UHGV virus genome: UHGV-0173505
Source of the DNA: a virus
DNA: 32,704 bases
Direction: 5' to 3' (one strand)
The notes beneath the pieces are model-generated. The model did no database searches. It had not been told where the DNA came from and was given only the letters and a program-made list of their open reading frames with translations. Shown here one piece after another: positions 11,577 through 27,480 of this stretch. Positions within the stretch are counted from its first letter, which is position 1. The number at the start of each line of letters is the position of its first letter. Made by a program: the position numbers and the translations under genes.

Positions 11577-13342
11577 CAAAAAATCTCCACAATATTGCTG
11601 GTATTGGCGGACTCGCCCTGCAGCGGTTCGTTGAACAGTGCGTGCATTGTTGCCCAGGCCAGATCGGCGTGGCTGGCTTCTTCGCTGCGGCTGGCTTCAT
11701 AGGTCGGGCGGTTGCCGCTGGCGGTGGTTGCGCGACGGATTGCCATGAATGACTGCGCAATGTCGGTGTGTCCGGCGTCAAACTCCAGACGGCGGTGGCT
11801 GATAATGTCGTAGGCCTTGAGTACCAGGGCATTTTTAACATTGGGGTTATAGACAAACTCCCGGACGGCAGGAAAGAACGCTTTCACGTTCTCATAAACC
11901 CCGTGACCAACGCCGGTCGAGTCGATACCGATATACGTAACGTTGTACTGTTCGGTGAGTTTTTTGATGGCGTCAGCCTGGGCGCGGAAGTCCATCCCGC
12001 GCCACTGGTGACGCTCAAGAATGCGGAACTTACCACCCGGCACGGCTGGCGGAGCCACCACCACGCATCCGGCACTGTCGCCGTTCTGCGTACCTTTTGC
12101 CGGGTCATAACCGATCCACACTTCGCGCCAGCCAAACGGGCGCAGCGCCAGTGCATGAAAGTCGGTCCAGACTTCCCAGCTGTCCACCATGCACGCCTGC
12201 AGCTCGCTGAGCGGGAACACGGATGCGAGATCGTCCACGAACTCACACATCAGCAGGTTCTGGTATTCGTCCGGGCTGTACTCCATGCGCAACTGGTCGA
12301 GGTCGAACAGGTTACAGCCGCCGCGCACCGCATCTTCCACGGTGACTATCTGGCGGTATTGCCCGTCTGCGCACAGCAGGCCGGGGGCCAGATTGCTGTG
12401 GGACAGGTCGATGTCCACCTTGTCAGCTTTGTTGCGCCCACGGTTGAACAGCGCACCGGACCAGAACGGATAAGCACTGTGGGTCAGACTGGATGGTGTG
12501 GAAAAATAGGTCTGCCGCCATTTCTTGTGAATAGCCATACCGGAAGCCACTTTGCGTAGCTCCTGAAATTTCGGTATCCAGAAATATTCATCCAGATACA
12601 GGTTGCCGTGATAACTCTGGGCCGTGCGGGCATTGGTGCCGAGGAAGTAAAGCGTGGCCCCGTTAGGAAGCACCATCGGATCGCCTTTCAGCTCCACCTC
12701 CACTTCTTTGGCGAAGTCGATGATGTACTGCTTAAAGACGTGGGCCTGTGCCTTACTGGCGGAAAGGAAAATCTGGTTACGCCCGGTAAGCAGGGCGTCA
12801 ATCAGGGCTTCACGGGCAAAGTAAAAGGTCGCGCCGATCTGGCGTGACTTCAGCAGGTTGCGGATGCGGTTGGTTTTTCCGGCTTCCCACCAGTGGCGCT
12901 GGTAGTTGAACATGGAGGAATGGAAGATTTCTTCCAGCTTCTCAATCTGTTCATCGGTGAAAACATTCTTTTCCGGCTGACGGCGCGGGCCTTTGTTGCG
13001 GTTGGCGACGTTTGGGTTTAAGTCGGCTTCGTTGCCGCCATTGTTAAACTTGCCGATCCGCGCGTGGCGTTCCGACTGGCGCGCCAGCAGGTCAATCTCT
13101 TTGAAATCTTTCCCTTCTTTGTGCTCCTTCATAATGAGCTGGCAGTAGCGTGCGGCGGTGGTGAGCTGCATCTGATCCAGCGGCCCATAGTCACCCCACT
13201 TGTCGCGTTTTTTCCAGCTGTGAACGGTTGCAACTTTCTCGCCCAGCATTTCAGCAATGCGGGCTACGCGGTATCCCTGAAAGTACAGCAGCATGGCCTG
13301 CCGACGGGGATCGAGATCTGCGGGTGTCAGTGTGGTGTTCAT
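11576..13342 (-). CDS. P: Terminase large subunit (ATPase) P
   Basis: 588 aa, ATG 13342; divergent from O across the late promoter region. Confidence 0.85.
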   Translation of the reverse strand: MNTTLTPADLDPRRQAMLLYFQGYRVARIAEMLGEKVATVHSWKKRDKWGDYGPLDQMQLTTAARYCQLIMKEHKEGKDFKEIDLLARQSERHARIGKFNNGGNEADLNPNVANRNKGPRRQPEKNVFTDEQIEKLEEIFHSSMFNYQRHWWEAGKTNRIRNLLKSRQIGATFYFAREALIDALLTGRNQIFLSASKAQAHVFKQYIIDFAKEVEVELKGDPMVLPNGATLYFLGTNARTAQSYHGNLYLDEYFWIPKFQELRKVASGMAIHKKWRQTYFSTPSSLTHSAYPFWSGALFNRGRNKADKVDIDLSHSNLAPGLLCADGQYRQIVTVEDAVRGGCNLFDLDQLRMEYSPDEYQNLLMCEFVDDLASVFPLSELQACMVDSWEVWTDFHALALRPFGWREVWIGYDPAKGTQNGDSAGCVVVAPPAVPGGKFRILERHQWRGMDFRAQADAIKKLTEQYNVTYIGIDSTGVGHGVYENVKAFFPAVREFVYNPNVKNALVLKAYDIISHRRLEFDAGHTDIAQSFMAIRRATTASGNRPTYEASRSEEASHADLAWATMHALFNEPLQGESANTSNIVEIF

Positions 13343-13388
13343 GGCACAAACCTACAGCCTTGAATGAAGGCTTTCCCCGCCTGCGGTT

Positions 13389-13406
13389 TGTGTGGTTGTC
13401 GGTACA
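13389..13406. promoter_or_regulatory. Ogr/Delta-type late-activator site (TGT-N12-ACA) in the P/O divergent late promoter region
   Basis: TGTgtggttgtcggtACA about 88 bp upstream of the O start; near-identical to the site upstream of FI. Confidence 0.55.
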
Positions 13407-13484
13407 AATACCGCGCATTGTTTCACTGCCCCCATCACCGCAACCATAAGGCTCCAGTAAGTTTTTTCTAACGGAGCACGGCTC

Positions 13485-14318
13485 ATGACAGTGAAAGCAA
13501 AGCGTTTTCGCATCGGGGTGGAAGGTGCCACCACCGACGGACGCGAAATCCAGCGTGAATGGCTGGAACAGATGGCAGCCAGCTACAACCCGGCGGTGTA
13601 TACCGCGCTGATTAACCTTGAGCACATCAAGTCTTATCTGCCGGACAGCACTTTTAACCGCTACGGCAAGGTGACGGCGCTGTTTGCTGAAGAAATCACG
13701 GAAGGTCCGCTGGCAGGCAAGATGGCACTGTATGCCGACGTTGAGCCAACGGAGTCCCTGGTGGAACTGGTGAAAAAAGGCCAGAAATTATTCACCTCTA
13801 TGGAAGTCAGCCCTAAGTTCGCTGATACGGGCAAAGCCTACCTGGTTGGACTGGCCGCCACTGATGATCCAGCCAGTCTGGGTACGGAAATGCTGACATT
13901 CAGCGCCAGTGCAGCCCATAACCCGCTGGCAAACCGCAAGCAGAATCCCGCGAATCTTTTTACCGCTGCAGAGGAAACAGTGATCGAACTGGAAGAAGTC
14001 CAGGACGAAAAACCATCCCTGTTTGCCCGTGTCACGGCGCTGTTCACCAAAAAAGAGCAGTCCGATGATGCCCGGTTCTCTGATGTGCATAAGGCCGTGG
14101 AGCTGGTCGCCACTGAGCAGCAAAACCTGAGTGCGTGCACCGAAAAATCCCTGTCTGAACAGGAAGAACGCCTGTCTGAGCTGGAGACAGCCCTGCAGGC
14201 ACAGTTGACCGCCTTTAACGAACTGGTGGACAAGCTGAGCCATGAAGACAGCCGCCAGGACTACCGCCAGCGTGCAACAGGCGGTAACGCCCCCGCTGAC
14301 ACTCTGACCAATTGCTGA
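13485..14318 (+). CDS. O: Capsid scaffolding protein O
   Basis: 277 aa, ATG 13485; acidic/coiled-coil character; position before N. Confidence 0.8.
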   Translation: MTVKAKRFRIGVEGATTDGREIQREWLEQMAASYNPAVYTALINLEHIKSYLPDSTFNRYGKVTALFAEEITEGPLAGKMALYADVEPTESLVELVKKGQKLFTSMEVSPKFADTGKAYLVGLAATDDPASLGTEMLTFSASAAHNPLANRKQNPANLFTAAEETVIELEEVQDEKPSLFARVTALFTKKEQSDDARFSDVHKAVELVATEQQNLSACTEKSLSEQEERLSELETALQAQLTAFNELVDKLSHEDSRQDYRQRATGGNAPADTLTNC

Positions 14319-14334
14319 TGGAGCACAAAACCTG

Positions 14335-15393
14335 ATGAAGAAGAATACCCGCTTTGCTTTTAACGCTTACCTGCAGCAGCTGGCGCGTCTGAACGGTGTG
14401 GCAGTTGAAGAACTGTCCAGCAAGTTCACCGTGGAGCCGTCTGTACAGCAGACGCTGGAAGACCAGATCCAGCAGTCCGCCGCTTTCCTGACGCTGATTA
14501 ACGTCACGCCAGTGACTGAGCAGTCCGGTCAGCTGCTGGGGTTGGGTGTTGGTAGCACCATTGCCGGAACCACTGACACCACCGCGAAAGAGCGTGAACC
14601 TGTCGATCCTACGCTGATGGTCGATGTGGAATACAAATGCGAGCAGACCAACTTTGACACGGTGCTGACCTACGCGAAGCTGGACCTGTGGGCGAAATTT
14701 CAGGATTTCCAGGTGCGTATCCGTGACGCCATCGTGAAACGTCAGGCACTGGACCGCATCATGATCGGCTTTAACGGCGTGAAGCGTGCGAAAACCTCAA
14801 ACCGTAGCGAAAACCCGCTGCTGCAGGATGTGAACAAAGGCTGGCTGCAGAAAATCCGTGAGGATGCACCGGATCACGTCATGGGCAGCACCACCACAGG
14901 CGGTGAAACCACACCGGGCGCGGTGAAAGTCGGTAAAGGTGGCGAATATGCCAACCTGGACGCCGTGGTGATGGATGCCGTCAATGAGCTTATCGACGTG
15001 GTCTACCAGGACGATGACGATCTGGTGGTGATTTGCGGTCGTGAACTGTTGTCTGACAAGTATTTCCCACTGGTCAACAAAGAGCAGGAAAACAGTGAAA
15101 AACTCGCTGCCGATATGATCATCAGTCAGAAACGCATGGGTGGCCTGCAGGCCGTGCGTGCGCCGTTCTTCCCGCCGAATGCGCTGCTGATCACCCGTCT
15201 GGATAACCTGTCCATCTACTGGCAGGAAGACACCCGCCGCCGTTCAGTTATCGACAACCCGAAACGTGACCGGATTGAAAATTTTGAATCCGTTAACGAA
15301 GCCTACGTGGTTGAGGACTACCGCTGCGCCGCACTGGTGGAAAACATCCAGATTGGCGACTTCAGCGCCGCCGCAGCAGAAACCGGAGCGTAA
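14335..15393 (+). CDS. N: Major capsid protein N
   Basis: 352 aa; recalled strong similarity to P2 gpN (TRFAFNAYL..., KFTVEPSVQQTL..., C-terminal GDFSAAAAETGA). Confidence 0.9.
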   Translation: MKKNTRFAFNAYLQQLARLNGVAVEELSSKFTVEPSVQQTLEDQIQQSAAFLTLINVTPVTEQSGQLLGLGVGSTIAGTTDTTAKEREPVDPTLMVDVEYKCEQTNFDTVLTYAKLDLWAKFQDFQVRIRDAIVKRQALDRIMIGFNGVKRAKTSNRSENPLLQDVNKGWLQKIREDAPDHVMGSTTTGGETTPGAVKVGKGGEYANLDAVVMDAVNELIDVVYQDDDDLVVICGRELLSDKYFPLVNKEQENSEKLAADMIISQKRMGGLQAVRAPFFPPNALLITRLDNLSIYWQEDTRRRSVIDNPKRDRIENFESVNEAYVVEDYRCAALVENIQIGDFSAAAAETGA

Positions 15394-15396
15394 TCC

Positions 15397-16047
15397 ATGA
15401 GCCTGAGTCCCGCACGGCAGCATCGCCTGCGCGTTCAGGCTGAACAGGTCGCCCGCGAGGGCGGCAGTGTTCGCCACGCATCGGGCTATGACCTGATGCT
15501 GCTGCAACTGGCGGAAGACCGCCGCCGTCTCAAGGGCGTTCAGTCCACGGTCAAAAAAGCGGAAATCAAGGTGGAGCTGCTGCCGAAGTACGCCGCCTGG
15601 GCAGAGGGGGTCCTGGCTGCCGGAGGCGCTCAACAGGATGACGTGCTGATGTACGTGATGCTGTGGCGCATTGATGCCGGAGATTATGCCGGGGCGCTGG
15701 AGATCGGGCGTCACGCCCTGCGTCATGGCTGGGTGATGCCGTTGGGTAACCGCAACGTGCAGACCGTGCTGGCAGAGGAAATGGCAGACGCGGCGCAGAG
15801 CGCAATGCTTGCCGCCACCGGCTTTGATGCTGATCTGTTGCTGCAGACGCTGGAGCTGACAGACGGTCTGGATATGCCGGACCAGTCACGGGCACGTCTG
15901 CATAAAGCGATTGGCGCTGTCCTGAGTGAAAGCAATCCGGCTTCCGCCCTTAATCATCTCAACCATGCGTTACAGCTCGATCCCCGCTGTGGCGTGAAAA
16001 AAGACAAACAGCAGCTGGAGCGCAGACTGCGCAATGACAGCCGCTGA
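15397..16047 (+). CDS. M: Terminase small (endonuclease) subunit M
   Basis: 216 aa directly after N, P2 order. Confidence 0.75.
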   Translation: MSLSPARQHRLRVQAEQVAREGGSVRHASGYDLMLLQLAEDRRRLKGVQSTVKKAEIKVELLPKYAAWAEGVLAAGGAQQDDVLMYVMLWRIDAGDYAGALEIGRHALRHGWVMPLGNRNVQTVLAEEMADAAQSAMLAATGFDADLLLQTLELTDGLDMPDQSRARLHKAIGAVLSESNPASALNHLNHALQLDPRCGVKKDKQQLERRLRNDSR

Positions 16048-16142
16048 CAGAACGTGCCCCCGCGCACGGGCGGCACGGGGTGGCGAAAGGCACTGCCACA
16101 TCAAAACCCCGTCCACCGCCCTTTATTTCAGGAGAAAGCAGC

Positions 16143-16607
16143 ATGAAGTTTGTTGCGCCAGAACAGGCACCGGAACAGGCGGAAATCATCAGAAATACAC
16201 CGTTCTGGCCTGATGTGGACCTGTCGGAGTTTCGCAGCGTGATGCGCACTGACGGCACGGTGACGCAGCCGCGTTTAAAGCAGGTTGCGCTGTCGGCAAT
16301 TTCGGAGGTCAACGCAGAGCTGTATGAGTTTCGCAGACGCCAGCAGATGCTGGGGTATGCCTCGCTGGCAGAGGTTCCGGCGGAACAGCTGGACGGCAAA
16401 AGTGAGCGCATTCAGCACTATTTCAACGCGGTTTACTGCTGGGCACGCGCCATGCTCAACGAACGTTACCAGGACTATGACGCCACGGCGTCCGGTGTGA
16501 AGCGGGGCGAGGAACTGGCGGAAGCAAGCGGTGATTTGTGGCGTGACGCCCGCTGGGCCATCAGCCGGGTGCAGGATGCGCCGCACTGCACAGTGGAGCT
16601 TATCTGA
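16143..16607 (+). CDS. L: Head completion/stabilisation protein L
   Basis: ATG 16143 with AGGAG RBS (MKFVAPEQ...); stop overlaps the X start. Confidence 0.75.
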   Translation: MKFVAPEQAPEQAEIIRNTPFWPDVDLSEFRSVMRTDGTVTQPRLKQVALSAISEVNAELYEFRRRQQMLGYASLAEVPAEQLDGKSERIQHYFNAVYCWARAMLNERYQDYDATASGVKRGEELAEASGDLWRDARWAISRVQDAPHCTVELI

Positions 16608-16810
16608 TGAAAGTGCTTGCGCATCAGTATGACACGGTGGACGCGCTTTGCTGGCGTCATTACGGGCGCACGCAGGGTGTCACGGAGCAGGTACTGAAGG
16701 CAAATCCGGGGCTTGCCGAATACGGCCCCTTTTTACCTCACGGGCTGCAGGTGGAGTTGCCGGACATTCCGACCACCACCACCGTGCAGACCGTCCAGCT
16801 ATGGGACTGA
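16607..16810 (+). CDS. X: Tail protein X
   Basis: 67 aa, same size and position as P2 gpX. Confidence 0.75.
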   Translation: MKVLAHQYDTVDALCWRHYGRTQGVTEQVLKANPGLAEYGPFLPHGLQVELPDIPTTTTVQTVQLWD

Positions 16811-16813
16811 ATT

Positions 16814-17029
16814 ATGACGCTTGAGCGAATCAGCGCCTTTATCACGTATTGCATCGCCGTCGTGCTGGCCTGGCTGGGCGATTTGTCCATCAAGGATGCC
16901 TCAACGCTGGGCGGCCTGATGATTGGTGTGCTGATGCTGGCTATCAACTGGTACTACAAACACAAAGCCTACCAGCTTCTGCGCGACGGGCAGATCTCGC
17001 GGGAGGACTATGAATCCATCAATCGTTAA
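16814..17029 (+). CDS. Y: Holin (two transmembrane segments; pinholin-like, 71 aa)
   Basis: Small membrane protein with two hydrophobic segments and charged C-terminus immediately before the endolysin. Confidence 0.6.
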   Translation: MTLERISAFITYCIAVVLAWLGDLSIKDASTLGGLMIGVLMLAINWYYKHKAYQLLRDGQISREDYESINR

Positions 17030-17522
17030 ACGCTGCCTTGTCGGGGCCGTGCTGGCTATTGCTGCCGCGCTACCGGGTTTTCAGCAGCTTCACACCTCCG
17101 TGGAGGGGCTGAAACTGATTGCCGATTACGAAGGCTGTCGTCTGCAGCCGTATCAGTGCAGCGCGGGTGTCTGGACCGACGGCATTGGTAATACATCTGG
17201 CGTCATTCCAGGCAAAACCATTACGGAACGACAGGCCGCGGAAGGGCTGATCTCCAACGTGCTGCGTGTGGAGCGGGCACTGGAAAGGTGTGTGAAGCAA
17301 CAGCCACCGCAGAAAGTGTATGACGCGGTGGTGTCATTTGCCTTCAACGTGGGGACAGGCAATGCCTGCAGTTCCACGCTGGTGAAATTGCTCAATCAGC
17401 GGCGCTGGGCGGATGCGTGCCGACAGTTGCCGCGCTGGGTTTATGTAAAAGGTGTGTTTAATCAGGGGCTGGATAACCGCCGTGCGCGGGAGATGGCCTG
17501 GTGTTTACAGGGAGCAAACTGA
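17010..17522 (+). CDS. K: SAR endolysin (phage-21 R-type lysozyme with N-terminal signal-anchor-release domain)
   Basis: Hydrophobic Gly/Ala-rich N-terminus, then YEGCRLQPYQCSAGVWTDGIGNT and FAFNVGTGN, recalled as similar to the phage 21 R lysozyme. Confidence 0.8.
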   Translation: MNPSIVKRCLVGAVLAIAAALPGFQQLHTSVEGLKLIADYEGCRLQPYQCSAGVWTDGIGNTSGVIPGKTITERQAAEGLISNVLRVERALERCVKQQPPQKVYDAVVSFAFNVGTGNACSSTLVKLLNQRRWADACRQLPRWVYVKGVFNQGLDNRRAREMAWCLQGAN

Positions 17523-17523
17523 A

Positions 17524-17901
17524 ATGAAAAAGAAATTAATCAGCGGACTGTTTCTGATGTTATGGATGGCGCTGTTAATCGCAGCAATGGTGTATCCGCA
17601 GGGGATTTTTCCGGTACTGGCAGCGTCCGGCGTTTGGGTAGCCTGTTTGCTGACATGGGCGGTAATTCCGGTAGCACTGGTTGCGTTAATTAAGAATGGC
17701 CCGCTCTGGCAGGAGTTGAGGGCATCTTTGCTGAAGACAATTACCCGAAAAGAAAACGTATTTATCAGCTGGGTGATGCGATTGCTGATTGTCGTAAGTC
17801 TCGCCTGGACGGGGTGGGCTATTACCCTGGTCTTTTATCTGCTGACCGTTATTGCCTTCTGGATCACCCGTAATCAGATGGCGCAACAGGTAGCAGCATG
17901 A
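17524..17901 (+). CDS. lysA: LysA-like lysis-cassette membrane protein (about 4 TM helices)
   Basis: ATG 17524 (MKKKLISGLF...); strongly hydrophobic; position of P2 lysA. Confidence 0.6.
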   Translation: MKKKLISGLFLMLWMALLIAAMVYPQGIFPVLAASGVWVACLLTWAVIPVALVALIKNGPLWQELRASLLKTITRKENVFISWVMRLLIVVSLAWTGWAITLVFYLLTVIAFWITRNQMAQQVAA

Positions 17902-18326
17902 ACCGGTTGCTGCTGGTTGTGCTGGCGTTATTACTGGCGGCGCTGGGCTGGCAGACGTGGCGGCTGGCTGATGCCAGCCAGACCATCAGCACGCAGGCAG
18001 ACGAGCTGCAGAGCAAAAGCCAGGCACTGGCAAAGAGCAACAGCCAGCTTATCAGCCTGTCCATTCTGACTGAAACCAATAACCGGGAGCAGGCGCGGCT
18101 CTATGCCGAAGCAGAACAGACCAGCACACAGCTGAGACAACGACAACGCCGGATCGAGGAACTGAAACGTGAGAACGAGGATTTACGCCACTGGGCTGAT
18201 ACTCCTTTGCCTGCTGACATTATCCGGCTGCGGGAACGTCCGGCACTCACCGGAGGTGCAGCTTACCGTCAGTGGTTGTCCGCGAGTGACGCCGTGTCGG
18301 CTGGAGCAGGCAGCACCGCGCACTAA
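17898..18326 (+). CDS. lysB: Rz-like inner-membrane spanin (LysB)
   Basis: N-terminal TM helix followed by Gln/Arg-rich coiled-coil region; contains the embedded lysC. Confidence 0.7.
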   Translation: MNRLLLVVLALLLAALGWQTWRLADASQTISTQADELQSKSQALAKSNSQLISLSILTETNNREQARLYAEAEQTSTQLRQRQRRIEELKRENEDLRHWADTPLPADIIRLRERPALTGGAAYRQWLSASDAVSAGAGSTAH

Positions 18327-18459
18327 CGGTGATCTGAATGCGTTGCTGGATGAAACGGAGGCCGCCTGGGCGGTCTGTGCAGACAAAGTGGACATGATTA
18401 TTGCGTGTCAGGAGCGAAACAGTGAACAAACCACAATCCCTGCGCCACGCCCTCAATAA
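18169..18459 (+). CDS. lysC: Rz1-like outer-membrane lipoprotein spanin (LysC), embedded in the +1 frame of lysB
   Basis: GTG start with GAGGA RBS; lipobox LTLSGC; Pro-rich mature part. Confidence 0.6.
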   Translation: MRTRIYATGLILLCLLTLSGCGNVRHSPEVQLTVSGCPRVTPCRLEQAAPRTNGDLNALLDETEAAWAVCADKVDMIIACQERNSEQTTIPAPRPQ

Positions 18460-18853
18460 AGCGGTGCCTTATGTCCGCAATAACCCGGACAAACTGCATC
18501 TGTTTGTGGATAACGGTTCGCTGGTTGCCACGGGGGCCAGCTCCATGTCGTGGGAGTACCGTTACACACTGAACGCGGTGATTGAGGATTTCAGCGGCGA
18601 CCAGAATCTGCTGATGGCCCCGGTTTTGCTGTGGCTGAGGGATAACCAGCCCGATGCCATCAATAACCCGGCGTTACGGGAAAAGCTATTCACCTTTGAG
18701 GTGGATATTCTGCGCAACGATGTCTGTGATATCAGCCTGAACCTGCAACTGACGGAACGTGTGCTGGTCAGCACTGACGGCAGAGTGTCGAGCGTTGAAG
18801 CTATAGCGGAACCTGATGCACCTGAAGAAATGTGGACGGTGAAACGTGGCTGA
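18422..18853 (+). CDS. R: Tail completion protein R
   Basis: Recalled similarity to P2 gpR (LRHAL...NPDKLHLFVDNGS...LTERVLVS); GTG 18422 with AGGAG RBS chosen, no in-frame ATG near the 5' end. Confidence 0.7.
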   Translation: MNKPQSLRHALNKAVPYVRNNPDKLHLFVDNGSLVATGASSMSWEYRYTLNAVIEDFSGDQNLLMAPVLLWLRDNQPDAINNPALREKLFTFEVDILRNDVCDISLNLQLTERVLVSTDGRVSSVEAIAEPDAPEEMWTVKRG

Positions 18854-19292
18854 ACTGCAGAAGGTGGACGACTGGCTGAGTGCCTTGCTGGCGAATCTGG
18901 AACCAGCCTCGAGAAGCCGCATGATGCGCCAGCTGGCGCAGGAACTTCGCCGGACACAGCAGCAGAATATCAGGATGCAGCGCAACCCTGACGGCAGCAG
19001 CTATGAACCGCGACGGGTAACAGCACGCAGTAAAAAAGGCCGTATCAAACGTCAGATGTTTGCAAAGCTGCGCACCACAAAATACCTGAAAACTGCCGCC
19101 AGCACCGACTCTGCCAGCGTGCAGTTTGAAGGCAAGGTGCAGCGCATTGCCCGCGTTCACCATTACGGCCTGCGAGATCGCGTTAGTCGTAAGGGACCGG
19201 AGGTGCGTTACGCAGAGCGTCGCCTTCTGGGTGTAAATGATGATGTTGAGGCAATGACCCGCGACATGATTCTGCAATGGCTGGCGGGGTGA
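18846..19292 (+). CDS. S: Tail completion protein S
   Basis: Recalled P2 gpS-like sequence (LAQELRRTQQQNI...); GTG start overlapping the R stop. Confidence 0.7.
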   Translation: MAELQKVDDWLSALLANLEPASRSRMMRQLAQELRRTQQQNIRMQRNPDGSSYEPRRVTARSKKGRIKRQMFAKLRTTKYLKTAASTDSASVQFEGKVQRIARVHHYGLRDRVSRKGPEVRYAERRLLGVNDDVEAMTRDMILQWLAG

Positions 19293-19295
19293 TCT

Positions 19296-19313
19296 TTGTA
19301 TCAGCACTGATAC
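19296..19313. promoter_or_regulatory. Ogr/Delta-type late-activator site (TGT-N12-ACA) of the V-operon late promoter
   Basis: TGTatcagcactgatACA, a perfect palindrome, 57 bp upstream of the V start codon. Confidence 0.55.
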
Positions 19314-19360
19314 AAGTTGCAGCACTGCCGCCTTTCTTCCCCTGATGGCAACCTTTCCCT

Positions 19361-19939
19361 ATGAACGCACAATTAACCGAAATCATGCGCCTTATCACCA
19401 ACCTGATCCGCACAGGGGTAGTCACCGAAGTGGACAGGGAAAACTGGCTTTGCCGGGTGAAAACGGGCGAGCTTGAAACCAACTGGATCAGCTGGCTGAC
19501 GCTGCGTGCCGGGAATGCCCGTACATGGTGGCGACCATCGGAAGGTGAGCAGGTGGTGCTGCTGAGTCTGGGCGGCAATCTGGAAACCGCCTTTGCGCTG
19601 CCCGCTGTCTATTCGAATCAGTTCGCACCACCGTCGACGTCGGCGGACGCCTGCGTGACAGAACATCCTGACGGTGGCTGGTTTGAATACGAACCCGCCA
19701 CCGGGCGCTGGTATGTCAGGGGCATCAAATCAATGGTCATTGAGGCTGCTGACAACATCACCATGAAAACCAGTGAGTTTGTACTGGAGGCTGACCGCAC
19801 GCGCATTAACAGCGAAGTGGTGATCAATGGTGGCGTTACCCAGGGCGGCGGAGCGATGAGTTCTAACGGGATCGTGGTTGATGCGCATCAGCATACTGGC
19901 GTCCTGAAAGGCGGCGATACAACCGGAGGCCCGGTATGA
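19361..19939 (+). CDS. V: Baseplate spike/hub protein V
   Basis: 192 aa, first gene after the late promoter; P2 order V-W-J-I-H-G. Confidence 0.8.
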   Translation: MNAQLTEIMRLITNLIRTGVVTEVDRENWLCRVKTGELETNWISWLTLRAGNARTWWRPSEGEQVVLLSLGGNLETAFALPAVYSNQFAPPSTSADACVTEHPDGGWFEYEPATGRWYVRGIKSMVIEAADNITMKTSEFVLEADRTRINSEVVINGGVTQGGGAMSSNGIVVDAHQHTGVLKGGDTTGGPV

Positions 19940-20295
19940 CGCTTTATAGCGGGATGAACAATACCAGCGGCAAAGTCATTACTGATATTGATCATCTGCG
20001 CCAGTCGGTGCGGGACATTCTGCTGACACCGCAGGGTAGCCGTATTGCCCGCCGGGAATATGGTTCCCTGCTGTCGGCACTGATAGATCAGCCACAAAAT
20101 CCGGCATTACGCCTGCAGGTCATGTCGGCAGTGTATGTGGCGCTGAGTCGCTGGGAGCCACGGTTGACGCTGGATTCCATCACCATCAACAGCAATTTTG
20201 ACGGTTCAATGGTGGTGGAGCTGACCGGGCGGCGGAATAACGGTGTGCCTGTGTCCCTTTCCGTATCAACAGGAGCAGAGAATGGCAGTGATTGA
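19936..20295 (+). CDS. W: Baseplate wedge protein W (gp25-like)
   Basis: 119 aa; ATGA start/stop overlap with V. Confidence 0.8.
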   Translation: MTLYSGMNNTSGKVITDIDHLRQSVRDILLTPQGSRIARREYGSLLSALIDQPQNPALRLQVMSAVYVALSRWEPRLTLDSITINSNFDGSMVVELTGRRNNGVPVSLSVSTGAENGSD

Positions 20296-21190
20296 CCTTT
20301 CGCAGTTGCCTGCACCGCAGATTGTGGATGTGCCGGACTTTGAGACGCTGCTTGCCGAACGCAAGGCAGAATTTGTGGCGCTTCATCCGAAAGATGAGCA
20401 GGAAGCAGTGATCCGCACGCTGGAACTGGAATCTGAACCCGCCACCAAATTGCTTCAGGAGAACGCTTACCGTGAGTTGCTTCTGCGCCAGCGCATTAAC
20501 GAAGCCGCGCAGGCGGTGATGGTGGCTTACGCGATGGGCGGCGATCTTGACCAGCTCGCTGCCAACTACAACGTGACACGCCTGACGGTGACGCCTGCTG
20601 ATAATGATGCTGTGCCGCCCGTTGCAGCTGTGATGGAAAGCGATGAAGCGTTGCGCCTGCGTGTGCCTGCAGCCTTTGAAGGGCTTTCTGTTGCGGGGCC
20701 AACTGCAGCTTATGAATTTCATGCCCGAAGCGCCGACGGTCGGGTGGCGGATGCCAGTGCAACCAGCCCGGCACCTGCAGAGGTGGTGCTGACTGTCCTT
20801 AGCCGCGAAGGCGATGGAACTGCAGAAAAAGACCTGCTGGACGTGGTGGAAAAAGCTCTGAACAGTGAGAACGTCCGCCCGGTGGCTGACCGTCTTACGG
20901 TTCGCAGCGCAGAAATCATCCCGTATCGCGTGGAAGCCACCATTTTTCTCTATCCTGGACCGGAAGCAGAGCCGGTAATGGCAGCGGCAAAAGCCAGCCT
21001 GCAGAAGTACATCGCCAGTCAGACGCGTCTTGGTCGGGATATTCGCCGTAGCGCCATCTTTGCCGCCCTGCATGTTGAGGGGGTGCAGCGTGTGGAGCTG
21101 GCTTCTCCTCTGGCGGATGTGGTCCTGAACAAAACACAGGCGGCATCATGTACGCAGTGGAGCGTAACCAACGGAGGAACGGATGAATAG
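20282..21190 (+). CDS. J: Baseplate protein J
   Basis: 302 aa from ATG 20282 (MAVIDLSQLP...), the size I recall for P2 gpJ. Confidence 0.8.
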   Translation: MAVIDLSQLPAPQIVDVPDFETLLAERKAEFVALHPKDEQEAVIRTLELESEPATKLLQENAYRELLLRQRINEAAQAVMVAYAMGGDLDQLAANYNVTRLTVTPADNDAVPPVAAVMESDEALRLRVPAAFEGLSVAGPTAAYEFHARSADGRVADASATSPAPAEVVLTVLSREGDGTAEKDLLDVVEKALNSENVRPVADRLTVRSAEIIPYRVEATIFLYPGPEAEPVMAAAKASLQKYIASQTRLGRDIRRSAIFAALHVEGVQRVELASPLADVVLNKTQAASCTQWSVTNGGTDE

Positions 21191-21788
21191 TCTGCTGCCA
21201 CCGGGTTCAACACCACTGGAGCGCCGACTGGCGCAAACCTGCAGCGGGATTTCTGATCTGCAGGTGCCGCTTCGTGACTTGTGGAATCCGGCAACCTGTC
21301 CGGTCAGTTTCCTGCCTTATCTCGCCTGGGCGTTCTCTGTGGATCGCTGGGACGAGGGCTGGACAGAAAGCGTCAAGCGCCAGGTGGTGAAGGATGCTTT
21401 TTATATTCATCAGCATAAAGGGACCACCAGTGCCGTGCGGCGGGTGGTGGAGCCGTTCGGATTCCTGATCCGCATTATTGAGTGGTGGCAGACCGGAGAA
21501 ACACCGGGCACGTTTCGCCTGGATATCGGCGTGCAGGACCAGGGCATCACTGAAGATACCTATCTGGAACTTGAGCGACTGATAAGCGATGCCAAACCAT
21601 GTAGCCGCCACATGATCGGCATGTCCATCAATCTGCAGACCAGCGGCCCGCATTGGGTGGGAGCCGCCAGCTATCTTGGCGAAGAAATCACGATCTATCC
21701 GTATATCAACGAAACGATTATTTCCGGTGGCACCGCGCATGAAGGCGGGGCGGTCCATGTTATTGACACAATGAGAGTGAATCCATGA
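21183..21788 (+). CDS. I: Baseplate / tail-fibre attachment protein I
   Basis: 201 aa between J and H. Confidence 0.75.
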   Translation: MNSLLPPGSTPLERRLAQTCSGISDLQVPLRDLWNPATCPVSFLPYLAWAFSVDRWDEGWTESVKRQVVKDAFYIHQHKGTTSAVRRVVEPFGFLIRIIEWWQTGETPGTFRLDIGVQDQGITEDTYLELERLISDAKPCSRHMIGMSINLQTSGPHWVGAASYLGEEITIYPYINETIISGGTAHEGGAVHVIDTMRVNP

Positions 21789-23299
21789 GCACAAAATTTT
21801 ATACCCTGCTGACGGATATTGGCGCGGCGAAACTTGCCAGCGCCGCCGCGCTCGGTGTGCCGTTAAAAATTACCCATATGGCGGTAGGCGATGGCGGCGG
21901 AACATTGCCAACGCCGGACGCAAGGCAGACAGCATTAGTAAATGAGAAACGCCGGGCTGCGCTGAATATGCTGTACATCGACCCGCAGAACAGCAGCCAG
22001 ATTATTGCTGAACAGGTGATCCCTGAAAACGAGGGCGGTTGGTGGATACGTGAAGTGGGCTTGTTTGATGAGTCCGGGGCATTGATTGCCGTGGGCAACT
22101 GCCCGGAAAGCTATAAGCCGCAACTGGCTGAAGGTAGCGGGCGCACCCAGACCGTGCGCATGGTGCTGATTACCAGCAGCACGGACAATATCATCCTGAA
22201 AATCGACCCTGCTGTAGTGCTGGCAACCCGCAAGTATGTGGATGACAAGGCACTGGAGCTGAAGGTGTACGCGGATGATCAGATGGCAAAACATCTTGCC
22301 GCACCGGACCCGCATTCACAGTACGCGCCAAAAGCCAGCCCGACATTTACCGGAACCCCCAAAGCGCCAACGCCAGCGGCGGGGAATAATACCACGCAGG
22401 TTGCGACCACTGCGTTTGTACAGGCGGCACTGACGGCCCTTATTAATGGTGCGCCAGCCACGCTGGACACGCTGAAAGAAATAGCCGCAGCCATTAACAA
22501 TGATCCGAATTTCAGTACCACCATTAACAATGCGCTGGCACTAAAAGCACCGTTGTCGAGTCCGGCACTCACCGGAACGCCAACAGCCCCCACGGCGGCG
22601 CAGTCGGTCAACAATACACAGATTGCCACTACGGCTTTTGTGAAATCGGCGATTGCAGGAATGGTGGGTTCTGCACCTGCTGCACTGGATACACTGAACG
22701 AACTGGCGGCGGCACTGGGGAATGATCCGAACTTTGCCACGACAATGCTTAATGCGCTGGCAGGTAAACAACCGCTGGACAATACGCTTACCAATTTGAG
22801 TGGAAAGGATGTAGCTGGTCTTCTCACATACCTTGGTTTGGGAGAAGGTTCGGCATTACCCGTTGGTGTGCCTGTTCCGTGGCCTTCAGCCACACCGCCT
22901 ACTGGCTGGCTGAAATGCAACGGTGCGGCTTTTTCTGCTGAAGAATACCCGGAACTGGCAAAGGCTTACCCGACAAATAAATTGCCTGATTTACGCGGTG
23001 AATTTATTCGTGGCTGGGATGACGGACGTGGTGTGGATGCCGGGCGACAATTATTATCTTCACAGGGGGATGCAATAAGAAATATTGAGGGATTCGCAGA
23101 TGGCGGGATCGGCATGTCTTTTGATGCAATCAGAGGGGCTTTTTACGATGCAGGAACACGATCAGCGACAATGGCGAATAACACAACTGCTATAGGCAAA
23201 ACCGATGACCTTGGATTCGACGCCTCTCGTGTCGTGCCAACAGCTAATGAAAACCGTCCACGTAACATCGCCTTTAATTATATTGTGAGGGCTGCATAA
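21785..23299 (+). CDS. H: Tail fibre protein H (constant N-terminal part plus invertible C-terminal variable part, current orientation)
   Basis: 504 aa; C-terminus with the WLKCNGAAFSAEEYPELA...LPDLRGEFIRGWDDGRGVD tail-fibre motif; contains a crossover site at 22821-22846. Confidence 0.85.
   Translation: MSTKFYTLLTDIGAAKLASAAALGVPLKITHMAVGDGGGTLPTPDARQTALVNEKRRAALNMLYIDPQNSSQIIAEQVIPENEGGWWIREVGLFDESGALIAVGNCPESYKPQLAEGSGRTQTVRMVLITSSTDNIILKIDPAVVLATRKYVDDKALELKVYADDQMAKHLAAPDPHSQYAPKASPTFTGTPKAPTPAAGNNTTQVATTAFVQAALTALINGAPATLDTLKEIAAAINNDPNFSTTINNALALKAPLSSPALTGTPTAPTAAQSVNNTQIATTAFVKSAIAGMVGSAPAALDTLNELAAALGNDPNFATTMLNALAGKQPLDNTLTNLSGKDVAGLLTYLGLGEGSALPVGVPVPWPSATPPTGWLKCNGAAFSAEEYPELAKAYPTNKLPDLRGEFIRGWDDGRGVDAGRQLLSSQGDAIRNIEGFADGGIGMSFDAIRGAFYDAGTRSATMANNTTAIGKTDDLGFDASRVVPTANENRPRNIAFNYIVRAA
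22340..22780 (+). repeat. Tandem duplication (two units of about 222 bp / 74 aa) inside tail-fibre gene H
   Basis: ...GTPKAPTPAAGNNTTQVATTAFVQAAL...LDTLKEIAAAINNDPNF... is followed by ...GTPTAPTAAQSVNNTQIATTAFVKSAI...LDTLNELAAALGNDPNF... Confidence 0.6.
22821..22846. promoter_or_regulatory. Left crossover site of the invertible segment (gix/hix-like, TTCTCACATACC-TT-GGTTTGGGAGAA)
   Basis: 26-bp site of 12+2+12 architecture recalled as resembling hix/gix; inner half nearly identical to the inner half of the site at 24636-24661. Confidence 0.65.
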
Positions 23300-23892
23300 T
23301 GAAACCTGTTTTTGATGAAAATGGGCTGGCTACAGTGCCGGGTGATATGCGTTGTTTTTATTATGATGCTGAAACATCTGAGTATACGGGCTGGTCTGAT
23401 GAATATATTAATACTGGCGTAAGTATGCCCGCCTGTTCAACTGGTATTGACCCTGGCGAAAACATTCCGGGAAAAGTGGCTGTATTTACAGGTAAGGGAT
23501 GGAGCCATGAAGAGGACCATCGCAATGAGACTGTTTACTCAATCGAAAATGGCGCAGCTGTTACAGTGGATTATATCGGTGCCATCAAAAACGGTTATGT
23601 CACGCTTTCACCGTTAACGCCATATGATAAATGGGATGGTGAGAAATGGGTGACAGATACTGAGGCACAACACGGTGCCGCAGTAGAAGCGGCAGAAGCT
23701 CAGCGCCAGTCACTGATTGATGCAGCAATGGCTTCCATCAGTCTGATTCAACTGAAATTGCAGGCCGGACGCAAACTGACGCAAACAGAAACAACCCGAC
23801 TAAACATCGTGTTGGATTACATTGACGCGGTGACGGCAACAGACACCAGCACCGCGCCGGATGTCATCTGGCCTGAACTGCCGGAGGCGTAG
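23299..23892 (+). CDS. G: Tail fibre assembly chaperone G (for the current H variant)
   Basis: 197 aa immediately after H; C-terminus ends ...DTSTAPDVIWPELPEA. Confidence 0.75.
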   Translation: MKPVFDENGLATVPGDMRCFYYDAETSEYTGWSDEYINTGVSMPACSTGIDPGENIPGKVAVFTGKGWSHEEDHRNETVYSIENGAAVTVDYIGAIKNGYVTLSPLTPYDKWDGEKWVTDTEAQHGAAVEAAEAQRQSLIDAAMASISLIQLKLQAGRKLTQTETTRLNIVLDYIDAVTATDTSTAPDVIWPELPEA

Positions 23893-24298
23893 GCCATTCA
23901 ATATCTGGAGCACTGGAGGTATCAACCAGTTCCAGTGCGTCCAGATAATCCAGCCACAAATTATATTGCGCCAGTTCCTCACCTTTCAGACGACCAATAG
24001 CCGCTTTACCAGGCCATTGCTTGGTATTCATATATTCGTTGGACTGATTAATCAATTGCTGTTTTTTCAATTCGGCTGCGGCAATCTGTTCCTCATGTGT
24101 TGGTGGTGGAATTTCAGACCATGCAGGAAAACCATTTTCCCCAGCGATACGGATTTTTCCTTTCGGCGGTAATCCGGAAAACTCAATATACACCTGCTCA
24201 TCAACTTCAACAGCATCATCTGGCCATGAATTTACATTGATGTAGTCATCCTTAAGCGCAGGATTCACAAAAATATTTAAAGATGGACTAAAAAACAC
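23864..24298 (-). CDS. Alternative tail fibre assembly chaperone G' (inside the invertible segment, inverted orientation)
   Basis: 144 aa, ATG 24298; C-terminus ...DTSSAPDIEWPTPPAVQAR parallels G; convergent with G, 29-bp 3' overlap. Confidence 0.7.
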   Translation of the reverse strand: MFFSPSLNIFVNPALKDDYINVNSWPDDAVEVDEQVYIEFSGLPPKGKIRIAGENGFPAWSEIPPPTHEEQIAAAELKKQQLINQSNEYMNTKQWPGKAAIGRLKGEELAQYNLWLDYLDALELVDTSSAPDIEWPTPPAVQAR

Positions 24299-24299
24299 A

Positions 24300-24647
24300 T
24301 CACCCTCCTATAGCAACATAACAGCCCGATACAGGATTTGCGGCAGTCGCTACGCTGGAAAAACCACGAAAGCCGCTTTTTGTGATTGCGGAGGCAGATA
24401 GTATTCCGGCACCCGAAGGTGTATGCCCCACGTGGCTGGCAACCATCACGTAGCACGCCGACGGAAAAGCGAAAGGGAAATTGTTTAAATATCCCGCATC
24501 ATCCCCCAGACTTCCCCCAAACTGCCCCACTCCCCACTGGATAATAAGTGGTCTCCGAACGCCAGAAATAATTAATGGAATTGCTACATACCCATTCACC
24601 AACATAGCGCCGGTTGTTGCGCCAGCCAGAGCCAATTCCCCCAAACC
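24300..24647 (-). CDS. Promoterless alternative tail-fibre C-terminal cassette H' (expressed only after inversion fuses it to the constant part of H)
   Basis: Reverse complement from the crossover at 24647 reads in frame with H codons ...TYL/GLGELALAGATTG... for 116 codons to TGA at 24300-24302. Confidence 0.6.
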   Translation of the reverse strand, partial: GLGELALAGATTGAMLVNGYVAIPLIISGVRRPLIIQWGVGQFGGSLGDDAGYLNNFPFAFPSACYVMVASHVGHTPSGAGILSASAITKSGFRGFSSVATAANPVSGCYVAIGG

Positions 24648-24661
24648 AACGTTTAAGAAAA
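24636..24661. promoter_or_regulatory. Right crossover site of the invertible segment (TTCCCCCAAACC-AA-CGTTTAAGAAAA)
   Basis: Inverted copy of the inner half of the left site (GGTTTGGGGGAA vs GGTTTGGGAGAA); about 50 bp upstream of the invertase gene. Confidence 0.6.
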
Positions 24662-24710
24662 TGCAGAGGTAACAGCTAACTGGCATCATCTCCGGTTTTT
24701 ATTCAGGGGG

Positions 24711-25283
24711 ATGATCAGGCTTATTGGCTATGTACGCGTGTCAACAAATGACCAGAACACCGATTTGCAACGTAATGCACTGAACTGCGCGGGATGTGAG
24801 CAGATTTTTGAGGACAAAATCAGTGGCACTAAGTCCGACAGACCGGGGCTGAAAAAACTACTCAGGACACTATCGGCAGGAGACACGCTGGTTGTGTGGA
24901 AGCTGGACAGGTTGGGGCGCAGTATGCGGCATCTTGTTACGCTGATAGAAGAGTTGCGCCAGCGTGGTGTGAATTTCAGAAGCCTGACTGACAGTATTGA
25001 TACCAGTACCCCAATGGGCCGTTTCTTTTTTCATGTCATGGGTGCCCTGGCTGAAATGGAACGCGAACTGATAGTTGAACGTACCAGGGCGGGGCTGGCT
25101 GCAGCCCGTGCTAAAGGCAGAGTAGGTGGACGCCGTCCTAAGTTGACCAGCGAACAGTGGGCACAGATTGGGCGTTTACTCGAGGCCGGAGAATCAAGAC
25201 AGCGTATTGCACTGATTTTTGATGTAGGCGTTTCTACCATTTATCGAAAATTTCCGGCAAATAAGAACAATAAATCTCCCTGA
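24711..25283 (+). CDS. Serine-recombinase DNA invertase (Hin/Gin/Cin/Pin family)
   Basis: 190 aa; N-terminal catalytic motif IGYVRVSTNDQNTDLQ, resolvase core, C-terminal HTH (VGVSTIYRKF). Confidence 0.9.
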   Translation: MIRLIGYVRVSTNDQNTDLQRNALNCAGCEQIFEDKISGTKSDRPGLKKLLRTLSAGDTLVVWKLDRLGRSMRHLVTLIEELRQRGVNFRSLTDSIDTSTPMGRFFFHVMGALAEMERELIVERTRAGLAAARAKGRVGGRRPKLTSEQWAQIGRLLEAGESRQRIALIFDVGVSTIYRKFPANKNNKSP

Positions 25284-25331
25284 ATCAGCTTTATTTTGAT
25301 TATCCCTGAAAGCAGACAAATACCGTCATTT

Positions 25332-25349
25332 TGTGTGAATAACGGTACA
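25332..25349. promoter_or_regulatory. Ogr/Delta-type late-activator site (TGT-N12-ACA) of the FI-operon late promoter
   Basis: TGTgtgaataacggtACA about 86 bp upstream of the FI start; flanks match the P/O site (TTGTGTG...CGGTACAA). Confidence 0.55.
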
Positions 25350-25425
25350 ACTGCGCTTAGCTGTTTGTCAGGCACAATCACTTCAACATAGGGCGAAGCC
25401 TAATCCAATCAGGAGGTTCGCCACT

Positions 25426-26598: not shown

Positions 26599-26607
26599 GG
26601 GGACAAC

Positions 26608-27123: not shown

Positions 27124-27177
27124 TATATCTGAACGGCGCGGGATACCGCGCCAGAACCCAATTGACAGGACAGCAAA

Positions 27178-27480
27178 ATGAGCGATAAGCAGACTGAAAA
27201 GACCATTCAACTGGATACCCCCATCAAGCGCGGTAAAACAGAAATCACCGAAATTGTGCTGCGTAAACCGCAGTCCGGTGCGCTGCGCGGTACACGCCTG
27301 CAGGCCATTATGGATATGGATGTAAACGCGATGATGATCGTGATCCCCCGCATCTCCAGTCCGGCACTGACTGCACAGGAAATTGCAGAGATGGACCCGG
27401 CAGATCTCACTGCCATGTCGGTTGAGGTTGTCACTTTTTTGTTGAAGAAGTCGGTGCTTGCCGGTTTACCGACAGCCTGA
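27178..27480 (+). CDS. E: Tail assembly chaperone E (zero-frame product)
   Basis: 100 aa between tube and tape-measure genes; contains slippery TTTTTTG near the 3' end. Confidence 0.75.
   Translation: MSDKQTEKTIQLDTPIKRGKTEITEIVLRKPQSGALRGTRLQAIMDMDVNAMMIVIPRISSPALTAQEIAEMDPADLTAMSVEVVTFLLKKSVLAGLPTA

Follow-up and report, generated by a model that had tools for sequence, protein, structure and literature searches.

The DNA analysed here, a 32,704-nucleotide stretch of the virus genome UHGV-0173505 (hereafter the window), is a Fels-2-group (Wadgaonvirus-like) prophage of the P2 family. It contains three palindromes that are almost certainly the binding sites by which an Ogr-like protein switches on four late operons. 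Such an arrangement of activator sites is itself ordinary and well known. The twist is that the transcripts beginning with genes P and V are predicted to be leaderless. We consider the explanation as a whole, with Ogr-family sites, one of them shared by P and O, and leaderless P and V messages, to be highly probable.

Three palindromic sites precede the late operons

A first-pass annotation of this DNA had proposed that TGT-N12-ACA elements lie upstream of O, V and FI. Exact matches are indeed present in all three places, beginning at nucleotides 13389, 19297 and 25332; the V site had been placed at 19296-19313, which is 1 bp too far to the left.

13389-13406, activator site P/O: exact TGT-N12-ACA, TGTGTGGTTGTCGGTACA, centre 13397.5, matrix score 21.9 bits
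13387-13408, extended dyad of the P/O site: TTTGTGTGGTTGTCGGTACAAA
19297-19314, activator site V: exact TGT-N12-ACA, TGTATCAGCACTGATACA, centre 19305.5, matrix score 22.3 bits
19296-19315, perfect 20-bp palindrome of the V site
25332-25349, activator site FI: exact TGT-N12-ACA, TGTGTGAATAACGGTACA, centre 25340.5, matrix score 24.5 bits

The extended identity reported earlier for the O and FI sites is also borne out, as both carry TTTGTGTG...CGGTACAA, and the extended consensus of the sites is TTGTGYSA-N4-TSRCACAA. On the gene map, each of the late operons (P, O, V and F) is preceded by a site, a single one being located between the divergent P and O genes.

10530-13342, minus strand, P-Q late operon (terminase large subunit, portal), assigned from open reading frames, homology to P2 P and the annotation of the closest phage
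13485-19292, plus strand, O...S late operon, assigned from open reading frames and the annotation of Escherichia phage 500465-1
19361-23892, plus strand, V-W-J-I-H-G late operon (baseplate, tail fibre), assigned from open reading frames, an alignment of V and annotation
25426-32263, plus strand, FI-FII-E-T-U-D late operon (sheath, tube, tape measure, tail), assigned from open reading frames, an alignment of FI and annotation
32354-32572, plus strand, ogr / B / pag homologue, the presumed activator gene (72 aa, CX2CX22CX4C zinc finger)

The O...S operon encodes scaffold, capsid, small terminase, head completion, lysis and tail completion functions, and FI aligns at 69-70% identity to its counterparts in P2 and 186.

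Placement and conservation distinguish the sites from chance matches

The motif TGT-N12-ACA is not enriched in the window, where 8 matches occur compared with 8.8 ± 2.6 expected from shuffled sequences, and the case for function thus rests on placement and conservation. A total at expectation is consistent with the possibility that the three palindromes are random copies of a low-information motif (6 specified bases) that have no regulatory role, as is the fact that the five other copies, which reside inside P, H, FII or T or overlap the P start codon, are clearly accidents of coding sequence. However, no other match in the window is fully intergenic, and the three sites fall in precisely the relevant gaps, namely P-O (142 bp), S-V (68 bp) and invertase-FI (142 bp). 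The joint chance of finding one copy in each of these gaps is approximately 8e-6.

The extended dyads also exceed what shuffled sequence provides. When the window was scanned with a weight matrix built only from the sites of relatives, the three sites scored 21.9-24.5 bits and the next match 13.0 bits, whereas shuffled windows gave a mean maximum of 8.6 bits and a highest maximum of 18 bits. Moreover, relatives with otherwise unrelated sequence around the motif still keep it at a fixed spacing. This conservation effectively refutes a chance origin, which we regard as extremely improbable. The conservation counts given below are partly conditioned on the pattern, as both the matrix and the motif searches required TGT and ACA.

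No further activator site for P or for other genes was detected in the window by the matrix scan. Two weaker candidates were rejected: nucleotides 13331-13348 (13.0 bits) overlap the P start codon and have an unconserved ACA arm, and nucleotides 32065-32082 (12.0 bits) are inside D and score within the range of shuffled windows.

A candidate activator for promoters with poor core elements

The ogr homologue that had been noted in the prophage is real. Its product matches the Pfam family PF04606 (Ogr_Delta; E = 5e-22, 78 bits vs a cutoff of 26.3) and is 51% and 54% identical to P2 Ogr and 186 B, respectively, with all four cysteines aligned. The earlier proposal that these are sites of the Ogr/Delta/B type that mark late operons is strongly supported by their position, their conservation and the presence of this activator gene. 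Ogr recognises inverted repeats at about -55 and depends on the RNA polymerase alpha subunit (PMC3152322; rpoA109, PMC11434276), and late transcription in P2 is known to require contact between the activator and the alpha C-terminal domain (PMC3152322; PMC11434276). We infer that the prophage's own zinc-finger protein binds the three dyads and that, when bound ~55 bp upstream of the start, it activates transcription as in P2, using the alpha subunit to bring in the host's sigma-70 RNA polymerase.

A scan for consensus sigma-70 elements left each of the three gaps without a canonical promoter, and no terminator was detected in them. Instead, the core promoters are poor and appear to consist of the following -10-like hexamers.

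13349-13354, minus strand, P promoter hexamer TAGGTT, at -12 to -7 relative to the A of the P ATG
13342, minus strand, predicted P-Q transcript start, the A of the P start codon (leaderless)
13442-13447, plus strand, O promoter hexamer AACCAT
~13453-13454, plus strand, predicted O transcript start, giving a leader of ~31 nt with a GGAG Shine-Dalgarno sequence
19349-19354, plus strand, V promoter hexamer CAACCT, at -12 to -7 relative to the V ATG
19361, plus strand, predicted V transcript start, the A of the ATG (leaderless)
25384-25389, plus strand, FI promoter hexamer CAACAT
~25396, plus strand, predicted FI transcript start, giving a 30-nt leader with AGGAGG at 25411-25416

Promoters of this kind, with a weak -10 element and no usable -35 element, would depend on the activator. 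The symmetric site at 13389-13406 would act both ways, rightward on O and leftward on P, so that three sites could serve four promoters. The hexamers conform to xAnnnT, wherein the T at -7 is 48.5 bp from the site centre for P, V and FI and 49.5 bp for O, and this fixed spacing yields the four predicted starts listed above. Because the predicted start coincides with the A of the ATG for both P and V, both operons would be read from leaderless mRNAs. The FI start of P2 lies 56.5-58.5 bp from its site centre, and thus geometry alone is uncertain by about ±2 nt; a start located 1-2 nt further downstream would lose the AUG.

The site between P and O lies at a fixed distance from the P start codon

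It had been noted previously that the site between P and O leaves no leader for leftward P, and from this it was suggested that the P-Q operon may use another element. The geometric observation holds. A TGT-N12-ACA motif is present between P and O in 41 of 41 distinct sequences from relatives, which represent many genera from Escherichia to Plesiomonas, and the centre of the site and the A of the P ATG are 55.5 bp apart in the window and in every one of the 41. The corresponding distance on the O side varies from 81.5 to 100.5 bp across relatives, unlike the fixed P side. The suggestion of another element is unsupported, as P2 and 186 are each annotated with one site that is common to the two divergent promoters and the matrix scan uncovered no other in the window. 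Specifically, the P2 record has a single site (3057-3087) for pO and pP, whose starts at 3127 and 3016, as annotated in RefSeq (the source also of the 186 starts), are both 55.5 bp from the centre (3071.5) of TGTGTCAGTGATAAGCCA. This is the same distance that separates the site centre from the P ATG in the window. Likewise, the 186 record has one B site for its divergent p12 and pV promoters, and the putative PP' and PO' promoters of Smp131 were assigned the same 18 bp (PMC3931495).

The P promoter itself is also constrained. The pattern G-TA-nnn-T at -13 to -7 of the P ATG is invariant in the 41 distinct relatives, and the middle bases of the hexamer vary (TATGTT, TAGGCT, TATTTT, TAATCT, TAGTCT). 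The window hexamer TAGGTT is homologous to TAGCCT of P2, which is located 6 nt upstream of the annotated P start at 3016. Thus, P2 has TAGCCT, 6 nt and the mapped start, whereas the window has TAGGTT, 6 nt and the ATG. Indeed, the mapped P promoter of P2 aligns base for base with that of the window, minus a 23-nt leader, and alignment shows the P start codon to be homologous to its P2 and 186 counterparts. Compared with those two phages, the Fels-2-group clade would have lost exactly this 23-nt leader from its P promoter. The P-Q transcript is probably leaderless, starting at the A of the ATG, and the predicted zero-length P leader is a conserved feature.

Two other accounts of P expression deserve consideration. 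If the site at 13389-13406 served O only, an unrecognised element or promoter might generate a P-Q mRNA that does carry a leader. Leaderless mRNAs are uncommon in enterobacteria, and the window has an AGGT 7 nt before the P ATG with a predicted Shine-Dalgarno pairing energy of -6.1 kcal/mol, both of which would fit such an arrangement. Yet relatives lack this AGGT, and the AGG within TAGGTT is not conserved among them, whereas the 55.5-bp spacing and the TAnnnT pattern are invariant in all 41. Predicted pairing for P in the relatives averages -3.8 kcal/mol (-3.0 for the TATGTT class), compared with a constant -5.8 kcal/mol for O. Furthermore, P2 and 186 use one shared site, the sigma-70 scan found no promoter in the P-O gap, and no second activator site occurs upstream of P, where the next-best match is the rejected candidate that overlaps the start codon. 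We consider a separate P element unlikely. The AGGT upstream of the window's P ATG appears fortuitous, and for this phage taken by itself Shine-Dalgarno-led translation of P from some longer transcript may occur.

Alternatively, the sites could be real and the missing leader irrelevant if the first ATG of P were unused, and the window's P does have in-frame methionine codons at positions 17 and 32. We regard this account as very unlikely. Met17 is replaced by Leu, Ala or Ser in relatives, and the sequence DPRRQA, which precedes Met32, shows no variation from P2 to Plesiomonas. Differences within codons 2-20 fall mostly at the third position (146, compared with 51 and 43 at the other two), indicating that these codons are translated. 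In addition, the P start codon is ATG in all relatives and is kept at the same distance from the site in each. Downstream start codons for P were rejected for these reasons, and a leaderless P-Q message that begins at the first ATG remains our preferred reading.

A matching geometry predicts no leader for V either

For V, too, 55.5 bp separate the centre of the site from the A of the ATG in the window, a match to the P geometry that the first-pass annotation had missed. The V site begins 4 bp after the S stop codon. Among 20 mutually non-homologous classes of V-upstream sequence, with P2 and 186 set apart, all 20 have TGT-N12-ACA at 54.5-57.5 bp (mode 55.5) from the V ATG. When the hexamer was tallied over 22 non-homologous classes, an A at -11 (p = 2e-8) and a T at -7 (p = 5e-6) were each found in 18. 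V clearly has no Shine-Dalgarno sequence, as its pairing energy of -1.8 kcal/mol is the weakest of 24 genes tested, and in the P2 record transcription of V is annotated as beginning at the first nucleotide of its coding sequence. The V-G transcript is probably leaderless, starting exactly at the ATG. No convincing terminator was detected between S and V, and so V may also reside on RNA that reads through from the O operon.

O and FI are predicted to have conventional leaders

The O and FI messages would carry leaders of ~30 nt with strong Shine-Dalgarno sequences. For O, 35-40 of 40 relatives have GCAAMCATA at a constant spacing from the centre of the site, and the predicted start is 56.5 bp from that centre. 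A TTGT is conserved at about -36 of pO, which is a caveat to the absence of a -35 element. For FI, a TGT-N12-ACA is located 78.5-85.5 bp upstream of the ATG in 80 of 80 relatives. In 58 distinct FI relatives, the A (-11) and T (-7) of the hexamer are invariant and fixed at 44.5 and 48.5 bp from the centre, and the distance from this T to the ATG varies from 30 to 38.

Comparison with known late-promoter systems

The closest relatives of the window show no difference of substance from it. Escherichia phage 500465-1 (genus Wadgaonvirus) is 97.7% identical over the 8 kb compared, and Fels-2 of Salmonella LT2 has the identical geometry (P 55.5, V 55.5, O 87.5, FI 81.5-85.5), with the same 142-bp P-O gap found in its group. 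Late regulatory elements are unannotated in the records of both phages. The Fels-2 group of P2-like prophages has been recognised phylogenetically (PMC3448106). No tRNA or tmRNA was detected at the window ends.

P2 (Ogr; PP, PO, PV and PF) shares with the window four late operons in the same gene order, dyads centred ~55 bp upstream of the start (a predicted start in the window), one site common to the divergent P and O promoters, weak -10 elements without a -35, a V transcript on the first base of the coding sequence (annotated in P2, predicted here) and a Cys4 zinc-finger activator of 72 aa whose gene follows D. Unlike the window, where all sites are exact TGT-N12-ACA, the PO/PP and PF sites of P2 are TGT-N12-CCA, and TGT and ACA are only 11 nt apart in its PV site. 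In P2, S and V are also separated by a terminator and the orf30 cargo gene, and the P mRNA has the 23-nt leader with a GAGG Shine-Dalgarno sequence, in contrast to the homologous promoter of the window, which abuts the ATG. Phage 186 (B; p12, pV, pJ and the orf32 promoter) resembles the window in having one site for the divergent p12/pV pair. In both 186 and PSP3, by contrast, P is leadered, the site centre lies 78.5 bp away from its ATG and the right arms are CCA.

The classic leaderless mRNAs of enterobacterial phages are lambda cI, transcribed from PRM, and P2 V. The window's predicted P and V messages resemble these in their 5′-terminal AUG, ATG start, lack of a conserved Shine-Dalgarno sequence and a -10 hexamer that ends 6 nt before the ATG. 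The window differs in that its terminase/portal operon is predicted to be leaderless, and in that two of its four late operons would be of this type, each positioned by an upstream activator site.

We think it likely that in the Fels-2/Wadgaonvirus clade, and in several further enterobacterial lineages, the P-Q mRNA is leaderless (+1 being the A of the AUG) and is positioned by a bidirectional Ogr site that also drives O, which, V included, would bring the leaderless late operons to two of the four. Compared with P2 and 186, the change would amount to 23 nt of leader cleanly gained or lost between the start codon and a -10 hexamer that is homologous in both arrangements. Our literature searches returned nothing relevant on leaderless late mRNAs of the P2 family or on Fels-2 transcript starts, and no transcript 5′ ends, binding or reporter data for this phage or its close relatives.

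Prophages of this group are very common in Klebsiella, Escherichia and Salmonella, and nothing regulatory is annotated in their database records. The present analysis supplies such an annotation by locating the four late promoters, the activator sites and the points at which the transcripts are predicted to begin. What goes beyond routine is the strictly conserved, predicted zero-length leader on the terminase/portal operon. If this is true, a widespread, activator-positioned family joins the short list of natural enterobacterial leaderless mRNAs. The leadered P promoters of P2 and 186 and the leaderless ones of the Fels-2 group would then be a natural matched pair in which to study the way that leaderless translation determines the low level at which packaging proteins are expressed.

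The early region of the window also resembles that of 186, with CI repressor family domains identified by Pfam and apl-, cII- and DinI/Tum-like genes identified by position.

Late operons and their activator sites in a P2-family prophage

The window is a P2-family prophage. Comparison of positions 12500-20500 gave 97.7% identity with Escherichia phage 500465-1 (Peduoviridae, Wadgaonvirus) and about 97% with Klebsiella phage 4LV2017 and its relatives. Because the 142-bp P-O gap and the overall organization match those of Fels-2, we placed the phage in the Fels-2 group of P2-like phages (PMC3448106). Fels-2 likewise carries a Dam-type methyltransferase in its early region.

Features of the prophage (minus strand indicated)
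577-1686, minus, integrase (left end)
2002-2577, minus, CI (left end)
Right of CI, apl- and cII-like genes, assigned from position
4438-5352, early-region Dam-type N6-adenine methyltransferase (PF02086, 254 bits)
Past the methyltransferase, replication gene A, then a DinI-family gene (8904-9137)
9245-10171, minus, SIR2_2-domain ORF, 308 aa (PF13289, 25.4 bits)
10530-13342, minus, late genes Q-P
13485-19292, late genes O...S
19361-23892, late genes V...G
23864-25283, invertible tail-fiber segment, including the invertase
23864-24298, minus, inverted fiber-assembly gene of this segment
24300-24689, minus, inverted alternative fiber C-terminus of this segment
24711-25283, serine invertase (Resolvase and HTH_7 domains)
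25426-32263, late genes FI...D
32354-32572, ogr homologue (right end)

The SIR2_2 ORF lies between the DinI-family gene and the portal gene Q, which is the position of the P2 old/tin cargo genes, and it is therefore plausibly an anti-phage defense gene.

The ogr homologue reported in the first-pass annotation is present and encodes 72 aa with a CX2CX22CX4C pattern. Its product shares 51% identity with P2 Ogr and 54% with 186 B, the late activators of those phages, and scores 78 bits against Pfam Ogr_Delta (cutoff 26.3). [quoted passage not shown] The consensus TGT-N12-ACA describes the four P2 late promoters (PMC3931495).

Exact copies of this motif precede O, V, and FI at 13389-13406, 19297-19314, and 25332-25349. 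All three sites had been noted previously, the V site with coordinates 1 bp too far left, as had the extended identity of the O and FI sites, both of which contain TTTGTGTG-N5-CGGTACAA. The V site is a perfect 20-bp palindrome (19296-19315) starting 4 bp past the S stop codon, and the FI site starts 49 bp past that of the invertase. TGT-N12-ACA is not enriched in the window (8 copies versus 8.8 +/- 2.6 in shuffles); the five other copies fall within genes P, H, FII, and T or across the P start codon. Only these three are fully intergenic, one in each of the three gaps preceding late operons, an arrangement for which base composition gives a joint probability of about 8e-6. A weight matrix built only from sites of relatives, leaving out sequences identical to those of the window, scores the FI, V, and O sites at 24.5, 22.3, and 21.9 bits, respectively, with the next match at 13.0. 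In shuffled windows, the best score averaged 8.6 and never exceeded 18.

The copy overlapping the P start codon (13331-13348, TGTGGTGTTCATGGCACA; 13.0 bits) looks like a chance occurrence, since its ACA arm reads GGCCCA or GGCTCA in most relatives. A near-site at 32065-32082 (TTGCGTCATTCTCGCTACAA), with TGC in place of TGT, is located within D, at its 3′ end and some 280 bp before ogr; at 12.0 bits it scores inside the shuffled-window range.

Conservation of the sites was examined in relatives on viral contigs, 80 for each of O, V, and FI, and in another 80 for O taken from species-representative genomes, with O identities between 97% and 47%. TGT-N12-ACA is found 78.5 to 85.5 bp upstream of the FI ATG in 80/80 relatives. 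The P/O dyad is present in all 41 distinct sequences, which derive from Escherichia, Kluyvera, Citrobacter, Enterobacter, Klebsiella, Pantoea, Erwinia, Tatumella, Rosenbergiella, Buttiauxella, and Plesiomonas. The family consensus of the extended dyad is TTGTGYSA-N4-TSRCACAA. The textbook motif fits the sites of P2, 186, and PSP3 less well than those of this prophage: only 11 nt separate TGT from ACA in the P2 V site (10243-10259), and in P2 and 186 both the P/O and the F site take the form TGT-N12-CCA, as does the P/O site of PSP3.

The observation of three sites is thus correct, and its main reading, that Ogr-type activator sites mark the late operons, has as much support as sequence analysis can give. 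For this phage we infer transcript starts, binding, and activation, and the system appears to be a standard P2-type late-control circuit in an uncharacterized, very common prophage lineage. Start positions derived from geometry carry an uncertainty of about +/-2 nt because the P2 PF start lies 56.5 to 58.5 bp from its site center.

A single site is predicted to serve P and O and to yield a leaderless P-Q mRNA

The first-pass annotation recognized that, with a start 55 bp to the left of the shared site, P would have no leader, and it suggested a hidden second element for the P-Q operon. The annotations of P2 and 186 argue against such an element, since each shows one site for both divergent promoters. 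The P2 record has one feature of this kind, "activator binding site; pO, pP promoters," and places the starts at 3016 and 3127; the 186 record lists a single B site common to p12 and pV. In a scripted scan, the P2 dyad TGTGTCAGTGATAAGCCA (one mismatch) is centered at 3071.5, exactly 55.5 bp from both starts. In the window, the center (13397.5) and the first base of the P start codon (13342) are likewise 55.5 bp apart. This distance is identical in 41/41 distinct relatives, whereas that on the O side varies from 81.5 to 100.5. One symmetric site would therefore serve both directions, settling the P question without a new element.

Positions -13 to -7 from the ATG on the P strand read G-T-A-n-n-n-T in all 41 sequences, with variable middle bases (TATGTT, TAGGCT, TATTTT, TAATCT, TAGTCT, and TAGGTT), a pattern that bears the signature of a -10 hexamer. 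The P2 promoter, TAGCCT-tgccgt-G(+1)TATTC...GAGG...ATG, and that of the window, TAGGTT-tgtgcc-A(+1)TG, have homologous hexamers, suggesting that the P promoter of this clade is that of P2 less its 23-nt leader. The same hexamer stands 6 to 7 nt before the P ATG in Pectobacterium, Yersinia, Rahnella, and Sodalis lineages, where the dyad is more degenerate.

The first ATG is the genuine start codon of P. In alignments it corresponds to Met1 of the P2 and 186 proteins, Met17 is not conserved among relatives, and nucleotide differences over the first 20 codons are concentrated at third positions (146 versus 51 and 43). The AGG within TAGGTT is Shine-Dalgarno-like in the window (-6.1 kcal/mol) and is missing from most relatives; pairing in relatives averages -3.8 kcal/mol for P versus a constant -5.8 kcal/mol for O. 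The missing leader is a conserved and apparently selected feature, and on this ground we predict, as the likely outcome, a P-Q transcript that starts on the A of its ATG. This prediction is the sole mildly novel point of the analysis; no mention of it was found in the searchable literature, a body separate from the primary P2 papers.

A second class, with a leader before P, comprises P2, 186, and PSP3 together with certain prophages of Serratia, Enterobacter, and Edwardsiella; its center-to-ATG distances are 77.5 to 83.5 bp. The P leader of this class (P2 2994-3016 and relatives) opens with an inverted repeat, which in some relatives, such as CCCTCGT...ACGAGGG, would pair the Shine-Dalgarno GAGG with upstream CCTC. 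This repeat may be a translational control element, one not found in the leaderless clade.

The V promoter has the same zero-leader geometry

At V, 55.5 bp separate the site center (19305.5) from the first base of the start codon (19361), the zero-leader geometry seen at P, on which the first-pass annotation had not remarked. Many relatives carry unrelated cargo DNA in the S-V interval, giving 22 mutually nonhomologous V-upstream classes. With P2 and 186 set aside, 20/20 classes have the dyad 54.5 to 57.5 bp, most often 55.5 bp, away from the A of the start codon. Among all 22, A at -11 and T at -7 each occur in 18 (binomial probabilities 2e-8 and 5e-6, both significant after Bonferroni correction). 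Anti-Shine-Dalgarno pairing of V (-1.8 kcal/mol) is by far the weakest among 24 genes tested. The P2 V mRNA is one of the textbook leaderless mRNAs. In the P2 record, its annotated start coincides with the first nucleotide of the V coding region.

The S-V interval (19290-19315) showed no terminator, whereas that of P2 holds one plus orf30. Transcripts of the O operon probably extend into V, a gene that lacks a Shine-Dalgarno sequence.

The O and FI promoters are predicted to yield leaders of about 30 nt

At O and FI, the hexamer position is fixed relative to the dyad rather than to the ATG. The FI hexamer, xA(A/C)CAT, has its A and T invariant in 58/58 sequences at 44.5 and 48.5 bp from the center, and its T-to-ATG distance ranges from 30 to 38. 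The O hexamer, AAMCAT, lies 1 bp further out in 35/40. Starts are accordingly placed by prediction near 25396 (FI) and 13453-13454 (O), with leaders of about 30 nt that contain AGGAGG and GGAG, respectively. A crude sigma-70 scan of the three gaps revealed no canonical promoter, the result to be expected if these promoters depend on an activator.

Both flanks of the shared site contain further conserved blocks. On the O side, TTGT of TTGTTTCA (13418-13425) is invariant in 40/40 diverse relatives at 20 to 23 bp from the center, or about -36 to -33 of the predicted O start. This element may act as a -35-like TTG, separated from AAMCAT by an 18-nt spacer, or as an additional half-site for the activator (half-site consensus TTGTGTCA). 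On the P side, an invariant G-AAA block (13371-13375, minus) lies 22 to 25 bp from the center in about 39 to 40 of 40 relatives.
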